UHGV virus genome: UHGV-1378655
Strand: one strand, 5' to 3'
DNA length: 42,822 bases
Source: a virus
Shown here: positions 6,951 through 23,846 of the stretch, one piece after another
How the letters are laid out: each line of letters opens with the position of its first letter
Numbering within the stretch: position 1 is the first letter of the stretch
Program-made: the position numbers and the translations under genes
Notes under the pieces: generated by a model
Told to the model about the DNA's origin: nothing
The model's database searches: none
Seen by the model: the letters and a program-made list of their open reading frames with translations, nothing else

Positions 6951-9098
6951 TTATCTATATTTATCTCTGATATAATACATACCTTTTAATCCTACTTTTT
7001 TGTACAAACTGTTTATTGTTGTTGCTTGGAAATTACACCATTCGATAGCAGTAGCATATTGCATACGACCTGGATTACTAGGATTCCAACGCATTCTGTA
7101 TAAGGTGTTTTTACCTTTGTTAAAGTATTGTTTCCTAACGAACTTAGCACCACCTATAATACCATTACGTGGACTTGTCCAGCCTTGGCGTTTGGCATAC
7201 GCTATAGAAGCGTTAGGGTTGTTATCATATGCTGCAATACCAAAGTAGTTATAAATTCCATAGCGCCCACTAGCAAAGTTACTACGGCCATATCCACTTT
7301 CTAAGAAAGCGTGAGCAATTAAGTAAATTTCATTTACATTGTACTTCTTACAACCGTCTGCAAAAGCTTTACCTTGTCCAGATAAAGTGCCTTTACCTTT
7401 AAGTATCTTATTCAACTTACTTACTGATATACCTTGATATTTTCCTAAATCTAGCATTTGATAGCGTTGAGTTGAACTATTCCATATAGTGTTAGGATTC
7501 ATATACTTACTTGTTTGTGACCTAGAAGCATTACCCCAACCCCAACTATAAGATTTTTGAGGCATGCCATGAGCCATTTGTGCATTAAGCGCTTGTTGGA
7601 AAGTATATTTACTTTTCTCTACAACTACACGAGGTTTATTTGAAGTTCTGTTTGTCGTTTTTCCTGTCGACTTATCGTTCTGTGAAGGATTGTCGACCGA
7701 AGTTTTAGGTTTAATTTTTATCTTTGTCTTTGTAGTTGTTGTAGTAATTGTTTCTGTAAGTAATTTATCTCTTTTCAAATATAAACCGATAATTTTCTTC
7801 TCGACTTCTTTATATTTACTTTCATCAGGAATACCATTTTTGATTAAGTCGTAATTGATTAAATCTTTCATAGAACGCCATATGTTAGGATCTGCTTTGA
7901 TTGACGATTCAGAAAGTTTCACCTTACTCCAACTTAGCAACCAAACGCCGTAGATTAACGCTCTGATTTGATTGAGCATGAATTGGCGTTTGCTATCCGT
8001 TTGTCCTCCGCAAACTTCCATAACAAGCCAACCTGGATGTTCTGGTGCTTCTTCTGAATCAGGTCTAGGTGTCCATACACGCTCACGGTCTATATATACA
8101 TGAGGGTATTCATCTTCATTCACATATTTATTACGTTGTAAATACAATTCTTCAACAGAACGCATATGTGTACTCTCTTTGATATATATACCTTTTACTT
8201 TCCCTATCAACTTTTGCCCTTCAACCATATAATGATAAATATATTCCAAATCATCGTCTAAATCATATGCGAACGATGTATAGGAAACTTTGGTAACCTC
8301 TTTAGTTATAGGTTTCGTTTGTTCTTTTGTGTTTTTAGGAGTGTTTTCATTAGAGGGTTTGGACGGTGTACTACTTGGTTTCGATGGTTTCTTAGTTTCT
8401 GCGTGGTAGGGAGGTCTGACGAACCCACTTATACCATAGTATGTGTGTTTTTCTAACGAACCGGGAGAACCGGTATAACCGTTTGCATTTCGCCAATTTT
8501 GATCCACACTGGTGAAGTAACTCTTGTTAGATGGACCTACTACAACAGCTGTATGTCCTGTGCCATTATTAAAAGAACCTGTACCCCATACAGCCATATC
8601 TCCGGGTTTCGGAACAAAGTTTCTAGTATTCCTATAGAATTTGAACCCTTTAGGATATCTATACCACGCCATAGCAATCGCATTTCCTGTTGTTTTGAAA
8701 TGCCAATATCTATTGAAAATGTAGTTTGGTAAATCCCACAATTTTGTTACGATGACAATCGCCACTTGTCACCTTCTTCATATTTCTATGAATGTTCAGA
8801 CTATATCATCAACCTATTAGGTTGCTCCCCGTTTCCACTCGCTTGAGTGTACGTCTTTCGACTAGTCGTTGCACGTTCCTATTTATAGGCTTCGCTCATG
8901 ATTGCCTACAACATAACTTGTTTAGGGTTCCCATGAATTAGAGGAGTTTGCTATGATGATTACTCATCAAAGGTGCTAGATTCAACACTGGGCGCCATAA
9001 TAACCATCTACATCAACTCTTCTGCCAATCATTCTTTTTGCCCATGCTGCAACTTCCGAAGCAGTAGGTTTTCTTCTTTTAGGATTAGGTAATCCCAT
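6951..9098 (-). CDS. tail-associated peptidoglycan hydrolase (N-terminal CHAP, C-terminal glucosaminidase), split into two exons (9098-8985 and 8738-6951) by a 246-nt group I-like intron
   Basis: exon 1 reads MGLPNPKRRKPTASEVAAWAKRMIGRRVDVDGYYGAQC with RBS GAGGTGG; exon 2 resumes WDLPNYIFNRYW...; the Cys-His CHAP domain is restored by splicing; C-terminal LIAHAFLESGYG GH73-like motif. Confidence 0.7.
8739..8984 (-). ncRNA. ORF-less group I-like self-splicing intron (246 nt)
   Basis: begins after U of the Cys codon UGU; P1 GUGU paired to GCAC with G.U wobble; GNRA hairpin UGAUGA-GUAA-UCAUCA; P-like AAUUCAUGGGAA; Q-like AAUCAUGAGCGAAG; R GACUA; S GAUAUAGUC; P8 and P9-like hairpins (GAAA loop); terminal G before exon 2 UGG. 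Confidence 0.6.
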
Positions 9099-9236: not shown

Positions 9237-9569
9237 TTAAAGACCAAATATCATTTTGACAGTCGTTACGATTAAGGTTGAAATAATCGTACCGACAAGT
9301 CCTAACACCCAGAATTTAATCTTTTTGATATCTTCTTTACTTTCTTTTTTGTTTTCTTTTTCTAACTCCCTTTCTCTATTTATCGAATCTAAAGTAAAAT
9401 TCATTTTTTGATTAATCAAATTTTGACTGTGTTGTCCATCTTTAATCTTTTCCAAAGAGTCGAAGATTTTTTCGTCGTTATCTTCCAACCTTTTTATACG
9501 TCGTTCATAATCTCCTCTTTGGCTACTTTCTGTCATATAAACACCTACTTCACTTAAAATAAAAACCAC
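9237..9569 (-). CDS. hypothetical membrane-anchored coiled-coil protein
   Basis: RBS AAAGGAGGTGAG; C-terminal transmembrane segment; true start may be the internal Met (MTESS...). Confidence 0.55.
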   Translation of the reverse strand: MVFILSEVGVYMTESSQRGDYERRIKRLEDNDEKIFDSLEKIKDGQHSQNLINQKMNFTLDSINRERELEKENKKESKEDIKKIKFWVLGLVGTIISTLIVTTVKMIFGL

Positions 9570-21672: not shown

Positions 21673-22096
21673 TCGTTACACTCCTTTGTAAAGTATTGTG
21701 TCTGTATTTAAAAATAAGCCGAATGATACCGTGCTTCGTGTACTGATCAATGTCAGTTATCACTTCTTGTGTATCAATTCGACTTTTTATAAATGAATAG
21801 TTATTTATTTCTATTTCAGAGTTAAGTACAAAACCTAAGTATTGGATGATTTGTGCTGCTTCATCACGATTTCTCGCTTGACTATACACATGTAGGGTTA
21901 CACCTACATCTTCAAACATACTCGTTGTCGTTTCTTTATTAGTGACGTTTGTTTCACCCACAACGATATATGGGTAAACAGCGTCTTTTTGAACGCAATC
22001 AAAAACCCTACCGCCTAATTGTTTACTGACGATAGGGTTGCTTTTTAATTTGTTATATATCTTGTTAAACAGATACCGTTCTACTGATACCCACAT
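21659..22096 (-). CDS. tail completion / tail terminator protein
   Basis: 145 aa; RBS AAGGTGG. Confidence 0.55.
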   Translation of the reverse strand: MWVSVERYLFNKIYNKLKSNPIVSKQLGGRVFDCVQKDAVYPYIVVGETNVTNKETTTSMFEDVGVTLHVYSQARNRDEAAQIIQYLGFVLNSEIEINNYSFIKSRIDTQEVITDIDQYTKHGIIRLIFKYRHNTLQRSVTNGAE

Positions 22097-22108
22097 ATCT
22101 TAACCACC

Positions 22109-23524
22109 TTATGAAAAATACTTATTGAAAAATGCTCTACCTTCGTCAATTGCTGGTTCCCAAAAAGGTTGCGCAGGACTACCGTATGTTGTATGCCATT
22201 CGCCATCATCATCTTTGTAGGACCAAGGTATTTTTTTAGCACGACTGCCACCTGGACCTGTTGCATATCATTTGTTATCGTAAAGGCTTTTTATCCTCTA
22301 CTTCTTACAGTCACCTGTAAGTTCGGCGTACATTTTCAACCAATAAAAAAGACAACCTTTATTGGTTGTCGGACACTCTTGCCAGTATTATATTTATTCA
22401 ACTGGTACGCTCTACGGTACTTAATAACCTTTCGTAATCTATTAAGTTACCTCGGTGTTATCTTTTGTAAAATTGACGTTTCCCTAAAGGTCTTACAACT
22501 GCATAACCTTCATCGCCACGCGAAATTCTAGCGTATATCGTTTTGATTGGTATTTTATATATTTTTTCTAATTCACTAGGAGAATACTTTACACCGTCTA
22601 AATGTACCCATCTATTACTAGTTCTGTTTCTAGCTTGTTCTTTCATAGATATCCATGTGCAATTTGACGGTTCATAATTTCCGTTAATATCAATTCTTTC
22701 AATAGTTAAATTATCCTTATATCCATTATTGTATGCCCACTTATAAAAGTTGCTATAATCATTTTTCCATTCATCACATATAGTAATTCCTCGAGCGCCA
22801 TAATTTTTATATCTGTCAGAATTAGGGCTATAACATCTTTTTTTCATATTTTCCCAAATGTAATAAAGTCTAGAATCTGTATCACCATGAGTTTTTTTAG
22901 CTTTGCTCATAGCTATTTTTTGTAAACATCCACAACTTTTTGAGTAACCTGAAGTTATAGATTTAGAAGATTTTATCGCAGTATTGCCACATTCACATCT
23001 TACTAACCAATACAGATATCTATCCCCTTTAGGTGGTTTATGAATTCTTACTGGTTCAATAACTGTTAACATATTGAATTTTTTACCTGTTAAATCTTTA
23101 AAATTACCTTCGAAAACTTCGCCTTTAGAATTGGTAAGCATAACATCACTCCTTATAGATATTATACTAAACCTTCGGCTAATATACCAGTCAAAAATCT
23201 ACACTAAAGACTTTCACCGATTTTGCCCGATTTTTAACTTACCATTACTGGTAAGTGGGACATATGCTCTATCCCTGTGCCGTACTCAATGTATATAGCG
23301 TAATCTGCGCCTACACTCACCACACCTGTAAGTCCGTCATTCTTGAAAATGAAGTCTATAGACTCTTTTAAATAACCCATATCAACAGGAGCGTTCGCTA
23401 CTGCCATGTTATATATCTTCGTCGTTGTCTTGGCTATTCCTCTTTTAGCCCATCTAATCGTTTCTTTTTCAAACTCCTCAAGCTCCTTAACTAAATCCCA
23501 ATTTCCGTATTTAACCTTAGCCAA
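22109..23524 (-). CDS. HK97 gp10-family head-tail joining protein, split into two exons (23524-23271 and 22268-22109) by a 1002-nt group I-like intron
   Basis: exon 1 ...YAIYIEYGTG; exon 2 (frame with no start codon) YATGPGGSRAKKIPWSYKDDDGEWHTTYGSPAQPFWEPAIDEGRAFFNKYFS carries the gp10-family PF(L/W)xPA end; spliced product is 137 aa. Confidence 0.65.
22340..22370 (-). terminator. terminator-like hairpin downstream of the HNH ORF (may be an intron structural stem)
   Basis: GACAACC-AATAAA-GGTTGTC followed by TTTTTTATT on the minus strand; an alternative overlapping stem CAACCAATAAA/TTTATTGGTTG also exists. Confidence 0.4.
22458..23141 (-). CDS. HNH-family (HNH_3-like) homing endonuclease encoded within the intron
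   Basis: own RBS AAGGAG; Cys-rich zinc motif CECGN...CGC; YKNYGARGITICDEW and IDINGNYEPSNCTWIS motifs. Confidence 0.6.
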   Translation of the reverse strand: MLTNSKGEVFEGNFKDLTGKKFNMLTVIEPVRIHKPPKGDRYLYWLVRCECGNTAIKSSKSITSGYSKSCGCLQKIAMSKAKKTHGDTDSRLYYIWENMKKRCYSPNSDRYKNYGARGITICDEWKNDYSNFYKWAYNNGYKDNLTIERIDINGNYEPSNCTWISMKEQARNRTSNRWVHLDGVKYSPSELEKIYKIPIKTIYARISRGDEGYAVVRPLGKRQFYKR

Positions 23525-23846
23525 TAGGACATTCTCTCAATCTTGTTAAGTTGATTTCTTGTTGCCCGCCTTGGTCGACAGGTTCTCCTACTACTTCGTA
23601 AGTTTTACCGTTGTATTTAAATAAGTTTGTGTTAGTTATTGGCAGGCTGTACGGCGTATATAGGTTTCTGTCGTATGATTGGTTCATTTGATGAAACTTG
23701 AGTTGTTCAGATGAAGTAGGCGTATCCATAAATCCTTGTATTGTTTTTTCGCTCTTAAAGCGCTCTTGTTCACGTGGATACTCTCCTACAACCTCTCTTG
23801 AGCCTAATTCGATTGTATGAGGAAACTCATTTAATGGATTAAACAT
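23517..23846 (-). CDS. head-tail adaptor / head closure protein
   Basis: 109 aa, position in the head-tail joining block. Confidence 0.5.
   Translation of the reverse strand: MFNPLNEFPHTIELGSREVVGEYPREQERFKSEKTIQGFMDTPTSSEQLKFHQMNQSYDRNLYTPYSLPITNTNLFKYNGKTYEVVGEPVDQGGQQEINLTRLRECPIG

Follow-up and report, generated by a model that had tools for sequence, protein, structure and literature searches.

Organization of the split gene

The window analysed here is the 42,822-nucleotide (nt) stretch of virus genome UHGV-1378655, a Staphylococcus phage, to which coordinates refer unless another record or locus is named. A gene with the predicted identity of an HK97 gp10-like head-tail or tail-completion protein lies on its minus strand between the head-closure and tail-terminator genes, in the order of ph10-ph11-ph12 of phage PH15, and is divided by an insertion that carries an open reading frame (ORF) on the same strand. 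We consider it highly probable that this insertion, at 22269–23270, is a group I, subgroup-IA-like, self-splicing intron with an endonuclease ORF. An earlier reading made from the sequence alone had likewise described a gp10-family gene as split by a group I intron that has an endonuclease gene inside it, a view that colinearity with intron-less relatives, covariation, the internal guide, homology to a curated group I intron and selection on the second exon all sustain. The split gene consists of the following parts:

23271–23524, minus strand: exon 1, with a TTG start at 23524, 84 codons and two bases of the Ile85 codon
22269–23270, minus strand: predicted intron of 1002 nt, precisely missing in 23 listed intron-less records; its removal restores a 137-amino-acid (aa) ORF
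22109–22268, minus strand: exon 2, whose base 22268 completes Ile85, followed by 52 codons from 22267 and a TAA stop

The exon 1 product matches Pfam PF04883 (HK97-gp10_like, E = 5.7e-10) over residues 11–82. Its frame reads ...YAIYIEYGTG and, in unspliced read-through, meets UAA at 23236–23234, 12 codons inside the insert, giving a product of 96 aa that ends ...GTGIEHMSHLPVMVS. The exon 2 frame contains no in-frame ATG, GTG or TTG within its 52 codons, is limited upstream by UGA at 22270–22268 and ends in ...GSPAQPFWEPAIDEGRAFFNKYFS (that is, ...AQPFWEPAIDEGRAFFNKYFS) directly before the stop at 22109. Joining 23271 to 22268 removes that in-frame UGA and yields 414 nt encoding 137 aa, and this product can be aligned with PH15 ph11 (137 aa, annotated 'HK97 gp10 family protein') through the junction with no gap. 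The predicted splice junction reads ...YGTG-I-YATGPGG..., with the junction peptide YGTGIYATGPGGSR, and the intron-less target sequence in PH15 is ...TACGGTACAGGGATATACGCAGTC.... In all these respects (the stop after exon 1, the start-less exon 2, the excised UGA and the 137-aa spliced product) the locus is as the sequence-only reading had it.

A megablast search with 22000–23650 (1651 nt) against phage records returned 44 records. In the 23 listed intron-less records, which include PH15, CNPH82, phiIPLA5/7, CNPx, IME1348_01 and the vB_SepS series, the query spans 649 nt. Because each of these is exactly 1002 nt shorter, the insertion is genuine and its extent is fixed to the base; a search for intron-less homologues in related Staphylococcus phages had been suggested. 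Moving both borders by +1 leaves the product identical, and only the borders given here place a U (T at 23271) before the 5' site and a G (22269) at the end of the insert, the two bases that had been predicted to flank and terminate it.

The gp10-like head-tail protein is conserved and present in all relatives. For exon 2, the ratio of non-synonymous to synonymous substitution rates (dN/dS) is 0.08–0.14 between the window and PG-2021_90, PH15 and BE28, and 0.08 between the intron-bearing phages PG-2021_90 and BE28; differences between the window's exon 2 and its relatives are mainly synonymous. Exon 2 lacks a start codon and yet is under strong purifying selection, and it is therefore presumably translated, which would need ligation of the exons.

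Two further ORFs are called in this region. One, of 61 aa (22081–22266, minus strand), begins at an out-of-frame ATG within exon 2 and extends into the next gene, and its counterpart in the BE28 record is labelled 'hypothetical protein'. The other, of 120 aa (22169–22531, plus strand), runs antisense to the core of the ribozyme. For both, an artefact is the best explanation, in agreement with the earlier reading.

An internal guide pairs with both exon ends

The elements that would define the splice sites are these:

23271–23275, minus strand: P1 exon strand GGGAU, from the pairing table; P1 also forms in the minimum free energy (MFE) fold of the ORF-deleted intron
23257–23267, minus strand: internal guide GCAUAU-GUCCC, from the sequence and the pairing table
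22269, minus strand: terminal G (omega G), the last base of the intron

Within GGGAU/GUCCC, the 5' splice-site U at 23271 forms a U.G wobble with G23261. Guide positions 23261–23257 pair with exon 1 GGGAU (P1) and positions 23267–23262 with exon 2 AUAUGC (P10). Pairing of one guide with both exon ends had been proposed from the sequence, and both halves hold; P10 comprises six base pairs, one more than had been counted. The 5' exon U is also in a U.G wobble with the guide in 8 of 8 relatives having inferable borders, and every member of the intron family examined has a G at its assigned 3' end.

Copies of the intron occupy two sites in gp10-type genes, 27 nt apart: site A, EYA-(I/V/S/P)Y.., and site B, GTGI-YA.., the latter being that of the window. 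At these sites and in a different gene, the exon ends (5'/3') and the guides are as follows:

PG-2021_90 (site B): GGGGU / AUACGC, guide GUGUAU-GUCCC
BE28 and ROSA (site A): GCGAU / AUACGU, guide ACGUAU-GUCGC
Lysinibacillus prophage (site A): GCGGU / GUACGU, guide ACGUAU-GCCGC
TPWB06 (tape-measure gene): UGGGU / AAUAAC, guide GUUAUU-GCCCA

As far as these predicted pairings go, the guide co-varies with both exon ends from copy to copy, which is a requirement of the group I mechanism. The intron of phiCDKH02 (locus L009, 565–1683) is without a P2 hairpin and has a long P1 (AUAUGCCU/GGGCAUAU); its borders, deduced from frame and pairing only, give the junction EYA-S-YVEFG.

A predicted group I fold supported by covariation

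We aligned 16 intron cores from seven kinds of host gene, with the P5 insert excised where present (alignment A1), and scored on it a structure comprising P3, P4, P5, P6, P7 (pseudoknotted with P3), P7.1, P8, P9 and P9.1. Controls were structures whose 3' partners had been slid by 1–3 columns, and 500 shuffles. In the window copy all core helices are intact; they are listed 5' to 3' with the P2 hairpin that precedes them, paired cells and changes referring to the alignment:

23237–23256, minus strand: P2 hairpin ACUUACC-AGUAAU-GGUAAGU; the read-through UAA (23236–23234) follows directly
23225–23230, minus strand: P3 5' strand UCGGGC; 97.9% of cells paired, both-side changes in 5 of 6 pairs
23215–23220, minus strand: P4 5' strand UCGGUG; 99% of cells paired, 3 of 6 pairs compensatory; followed by the A-rich J4/5 (AAA)
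23206–23211, minus strand: P5 5' strand GUCUUU; the stem brackets the ORF insertion
22460–22465, minus strand: P5 3' strand AAAGAU; extends over the ORF's final codons and stop
22452–22457, minus strand: P4 3' strand CACCGA; immediately 3' of the ORF stop codon
22416–22451, minus strand: P6 hairpin GGUA(A)CUUAAUA...UAUUAAGUACC; 90% of cells paired, 9 of 11 pairs compensatory
22406–22410, minus strand: P7 5' strand GCGUA; 100% of cells paired; conserved J6/7 GUAGA just before
22382–22405, minus strand: P7.1 hairpin CCAGU...ACUGG with conserved loop UGAAUAAAUAUAAU; 100% paired, 5 of 5 pairs compensatory
22369–22374, minus strand: P3 3' strand GUCCGA; P3 is pseudoknotted with P7
22337–22368, minus strand: P8 hairpin CAACCAAUAAA...UUUAUUGGUUG; 9 of 11 pairs compensatory
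22326–22330, minus strand: P7 3' strand UACGC; 100% of cells paired; J8/7 GAAAAUG just before
22304–22321, minus strand: P9 hairpin CUUACAG-GUGA-CUGUAAG; 100% of cells paired, 5 of 7 pairs compensatory
22280–22301, minus strand: P9.1 hairpin GUAGAGG-AUAAAAAG-CCUUUAC; 96% of cells paired, 5 of 7 pairs compensatory

The helix order P3-P4-P5-P6-P7-P7.1-P3'-P8-P7'-P9-P9.1, with the P3/P7 pseudoknot, is that of a group I intron. Standard pairs fill 93.2% of the 950 cells of the alignment, compared with 34–42% in the slid controls; both sides change in 46 of the 63 pairs, and covariation scores 0.561 where the slid controls get no higher than 0.117. None of the 500 shuffles reached the observed values. 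P7 itself carries a compensatory G-C to A-U change in 7 of the 16 sequences. The MFE fold of the window's ORF-deleted intron (-86.6 kcal/mol, z = -8.0) yields P1, P2, P3, P4, P5, P6, P7.1, P8, P9 and P9.1. The alignment shows little or no variation in J6/7 (GUAGA), J8/7 (GAAAAUG) and the A-rich J4/5, and these segments align with their counterparts in the terminase intron of Streptococcus phage 2972.

In the scheme of Michel and Westhof, subgroup IA is marked by an extra helix or helices, P7.1/P7.2, between P7 and P3'. The window copy has one hairpin in this interval (P7.1), the second being absent, and we describe the intron as group I, subgroup-IA-like. Relatives of ROSA-type introns have been placed in IA1/IA2 (PMC2504315).

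A first hand fold, in which the ORF lay in P6 and the 3' strand of P4 was GCCGA, was rejected; the ORF-less relatives show this strand to be CACCGA, after the stop. Since CACCGA directly follows the ORF stop codon, the ORF lies in the P5 loop and not in P6.

A terminator-like hairpin, GACAACC..GGUUGUC with UUUUUU after it (22351–22370, minus strand), covers the P3' strand together with the 5' half of P8, to which it is an alternative. The other gp10 introns of Staphylococcus and Lysinibacillus have it too, and its effect might be to terminate transcription of the endonuclease gene or to compete with folding of the ribozyme.

A subfamily missed by RF00028

The Rfam group I model RF00028 was run on the whole window at its gathering threshold, on the locus (22000–23600) at E ≤ 10 and on 19 related loci at E ≤ 1. 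The sequence-only reading had proposed such a scan as a check and would have counted the lack of a match as a refutation; the locus gave no match even at E ≤ 10. We judge the scan an invalid test for this subfamily. There were zero matches among the relatives BE28, PG-2021_90, ROSA, Rosita, TPWB06 and PT1-1, and zero for JCL1032, phiCDKH02, PJN02, cr7_1 and phiCP39-O; all of the dozen-plus subfamily members scanned (loci L002–L012 among them) were missed, including ORF-less copies of 210–240 nt (JCL1032, TPWB06, cr7_1 and PJN02). RF00028 did score other introns, namely the 2972 terminase intron (53.3 bits) and a second intron of the window at 8776–8995 (93.8 bits). P7 is GCGUA/UACGC here and GACUA/UAGUC in the RF00028 consensus, and P4–P6 have diverged as well; it is because of this divergence that RF00028 scores nothing for the subfamily.

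A covariance model, R1, was built from alignment A1. It detects the window copy and several copies outside the alignment, and it matches the 2972 terminase intron, which was not in the training set, over the whole model (71.7 bits, E ~1e-20). As the 2972 intron is RF00028-positive, this match links the family to curated group I introns. RF00028-type introns such as that of 2972 and the window's own 8776–8995 share the architecture and splice-site rules described above; the 2972 intron further has P9-P9.1 and the 3' tail in common, and its alignment with R1 extends over the whole core, including J8/7-P7.

A close reference is the intron in the terminase gene of Lactobacillus delbrueckii phage JCL1032, whose coding sequence (CDS) is annotated as a join. 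From a paper title and the joined CDS, we take it to be one of two proven introns. Its P3, P4, P6, P7, P7.1, P8, P9 and P9.1 align with those of the window intron with compensatory changes, and the two share J6/7, J8/7, L7.1 and L9.1 sequences and a ...GAUAAC...UG 3' end. The JCL1032 intron differs in being ORF-less, with P5 a short hairpin, and in its host gene and hence its guide. Because this joined-CDS intron is missed equally, and because R1 bridges to an RF00028-positive intron, the missing match is a false negative of the model and not a refutation. A 2025 survey describes the RF00028 seed as incomplete for phage introns and nuclease loops as fragmenting matches (PMC11878797).

The intron-encoded protein

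The ORF and the signals preceding it are:

22458–23141, minus strand: intron ORF, putative homing endonuclease of 227 aa, with ATG at 23141, in the P5 loop
23149–23154, minus strand: AAGGAG ribosome-binding site, 7 nt before the ATG at 23141
23161–23166, minus strand: TATAAT box upstream of the ORF, seen in the sequence; relatives carry TATAAT in the same place

From its sequence and position, the TATAAT box is a candidate -10 element for an internal promoter; in a strict scan, neither a sigma-70-type promoter for the ORF nor a matching -35 element came up.

In the predicted protein, an N-terminal CxC..CxC zinc ribbon is followed by a central Cys-rich domain, marked by the motif E-R-I-D..N..NC..W..Q..N, and by a helix-turn-helix-like C-terminal part. 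It matches PHROG 374, 'HNH endonuclease', at E = 8e-74, and the HNH label derives solely from PHROG 374/3377. The product itself has no Pfam or NCBIfam match, and the Pfam HNH models match none of 31 members of the ORF family. The sequence-only reading had called it an HNH/Zn-finger nuclease with its own ribosome-binding site: the ribosome-binding site and the zinc ribbon are there, and it is the HNH assignment that stands less firmly. The family numbers at least 2775 homologues, almost all without Pfam domains. The invariant residues of the family are C49, C51, C70 and C72 (zinc ribbon), R102, C103, C122, R149, N160 and C161.

The best match of the ORF-family profile in the PDB is I-HmuI (1U3E, deposited as an HNH homing endonuclease), at a non-significant E = 0.18. 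This match covers the beta-beta-alpha-metal region, aligning DH.DGN..NN...NL.W with (E/D)R.D.NGNY.P.NC.W, so that the His of the I-HmuI 'DH' faces an invariant Arg in the window ORF family; by this weak alignment, R149 occupies the catalytic-His position of the HNH motif in all 31 sequences. I-HmuI is encoded in a group I intron of Bacillus phage SPO1. Judged by its residues, the protein is plausibly HNH-derived, and we predict that it would act as a site-specific nuclease.

The sampled members closest to the window ORF come from six loci across Staphylococcus, Lysinibacillus, Clostridioides and Clostridium, and each of the six lies in a gp10-type head-tail gene, within the short conserved stretch EYA.Y.E.GTG.

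Related introns and their insertion sites

A blastn search with the 189 nt 3' of the ORF finds relatives in 134 phage records, and many of these relatives lie in visibly split genes. Outside the gp10-like genes these include:

Terminase large subunit: JCL1032, S-CoN_Ph1, SA2, 2972 and cr7_1
DNA polymerase: Lbo-JY46
Helicase: cr118_1 and PJN02
Polymerase/primase: Dulem virus 41
Tape measure protein: TPWB06

The intron together with its ORF recurs in gp10-like genes of Staphylococcus aureus prophages (at the window's site), a Lysinibacillus prophage, phiCDKH02 (Clostridioides difficile) and phiCP39-O (Clostridium perfringens). PG-2021_90, BE20 and the S. aureus prophages (L023) have site B and the P1 guide of the window, an ORF 75–85% identical and 84–88% nucleotide identity; the intron is annotated in none of them. 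The introns of ROSA, Rosita, IME1365_01, BE28 and PG-2021_93 interrupt the same host gene 27 nt upstream, at site A (GCGAU-AUACGU), with a guide that differs at three positions. Their 3' ribozyme half is 93–96% identical to that of the window, and the ORF, of the window's family and also in P5, encodes a protein 40–42% identical. In 2008 ROSA was listed as carrying a group I catalytic RNA homologous to one from a Bacillus cereus prophage (PMC2504315, table 3). The positions of site A introns are:

L002 (BE28): 663–1625
L004 (ROSA): 1035–1998
L021: Lysinibacillus prophage

Between site A (BE28) and site B (the window) the 3' ribozyme half is thus 96% identical and the ORF proteins 40%. The site A introns are mosaics of a conserved ribozyme with a diverged or swapped endonuclease gene; there are earlier descriptions of endonuclease genes being swapped and retargeted between related phage introns (PMC2504315). 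A broader proposal, that the ORF represents a large Pfam-less, HNH-derived branch with an invariant Arg in place of the usual catalytic His and three extra invariant Cys bracing the motif, and that sites A and B reflect recent retargeting or recombination and not simple vertical descent, we put forward tentatively, as possible and on balance doubtful.

The P5 position holds other ORFs in the same ribozyme family: a GIY-YIG-like ORF (motif ..GKKYIGIT..) in PT1-1 and S-CoN_Ph1, and a LAGLIDADG ORF in Leptolyngbya phage Lbo-JY46. Some family members have no ORF in P5. The copies with these unrelated ORFs are at three loci:

L007: 943–1665
L014: 500–1222
L015: 538–1299

Two genes seemingly contain two group I introns each, one of the R1 family and one of RF00028 type: the terminase large subunit gene of SA2 (L019; 1260–1471 and 2142–2392) and the polymerase/primase gene of Dulem virus 41 (L017; 1251–1483 and 1974–2202). 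Staphylococcus phage sequence is matched at 85–94% identity by two records under other host names, OR842880 (Xanthomonas phage SU1) and PQ358086 (Arcanobacterium phage TPWB06). The matching parts of SU1 are exon 2 and the tail-terminator region, and TPWB06 is closely similar to the Sextaecvirus phage PG-2021_67; the host labels of both records look doubtful.

Alternative explanations

Several points weigh against a self-splicing intron. Splicing in the window phage is something we infer from sequence; the curated model RF00028 is silent on this particular sequence; P5 is the weakest helix, paired in 71% of cells across the family; and the Pfam gp10 domain (78 positions) lies entirely within exon 1, making a truncated product conceivable.

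Of the competing explanations, the one that fares best is that the element is a group I intron by descent and in the window phage a splicing-defective relic, with the gene inactive or rescued in trans. We consider this improbable. The window copy retains its core helices, splice-site U, terminal G, P1 and P10, and the window's exon 2 has changed mainly at synonymous positions in a gene that encodes a conserved head-tail protein of all relatives. The terminator-like hairpin and U-run at 22370–22351, lying over P3' and P8, could compete with the core; however, the same hairpin occurs in other Staphylococcus copies across several phage lineages.

Less probable again, to the point that we would be surprised to see it borne out, is that an endonuclease cassette split the gene with no RNA splicing at all, so that the 96-aa read-through product suffices and exon 2 is a decaying remnant. 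Exon 2 is intact and in frame, with dN/dS of 0.08–0.14 although it has no start; a conserved RNA fold, supported by covariation, is formed by the non-coding sequence on either side of the ORF; and the guide fits both exon ends and tracks the insertion site. A plain cassette gives no reason for the selection, the fold or the guide match, and these argue against it despite the gp10 domain being complete within exon 1, the missing RF00028 match, and public annotations of BE28, ROSA and phiCP39-O that list the pieces as separate genes.

Any other intervening sequence, for which nothing speaks beyond an insertion carrying an ORF, has a negligible chance of being correct, and group II intron, intein and IStron were rejected on sequence grounds: the in-frame stops and own ribosome-binding site of the insert exclude an intein, neither a reverse transcriptase nor an RF00029 match was found that would indicate a group II intron, the ORF is not a transposase as in an IStron-like element, and the fold is the P1–P10 of group I.

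A model for splicing and homing

For a group I intron that splices itself, we propose the following course of events. In the late transcript, the guide GCAUAU-GUCCC would pair with the exon 1 end GGGAU, with U.G at the cleavage site, to form P1, and the core from P3 to P9.1 would fold around it, P5 carrying the endonuclease ORF as a loop. An external guanosine would attack after U23271; the guide would then align exon 2 AUAUGC through P10, the terminal G22269 would enter the G site, and the exons would be ligated. The ligated mRNA would be translated into one protein of 137 aa, and ribosomes on unspliced RNA would stop at the UAA by P2, before reaching the core. The 227-aa protein would be translated separately from its own AAGGAG and ATG. 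It would most likely cut the intron-less allele in co-infecting relatives, and repair would copy the intron in, a process of homing.

A second group I intron by the lysin ORF

The window contains a second, unrelated group I intron at 8776–8995 (minus strand), found by RF00028 with 93.8 bits and not matched by R1. It lies downstream of a holin-like ORF (9237–9569, minus strand) and directly upstream of a 604-aa lysin ORF (6951–8765, minus strand) that starts at an internal GTG. The endolysin gene thus appears to be split as well, as has been reported for the lysin of PH15 (PMC2504315, table 3).

Implications

The intron is an ordinary kind of mobile element, group I introns and homing endonucleases being well known in phages of Staphylococcus and other Bacillota. 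Its recognition corrects the annotation: the gp10-family gene is to be read as intact, not as two fragments accompanied by spurious small ORFs, and the same error is found in BE28, ROSA and phiCP39-O. Surveys of phage introns that are based on RF00028 will under-count this subfamily, whose relatives extend to the 134 phage records recovered by blastn. The intron ORF, finally, points to a large endonuclease-like family that is without a curated profile and carries an unusual active-site motif.

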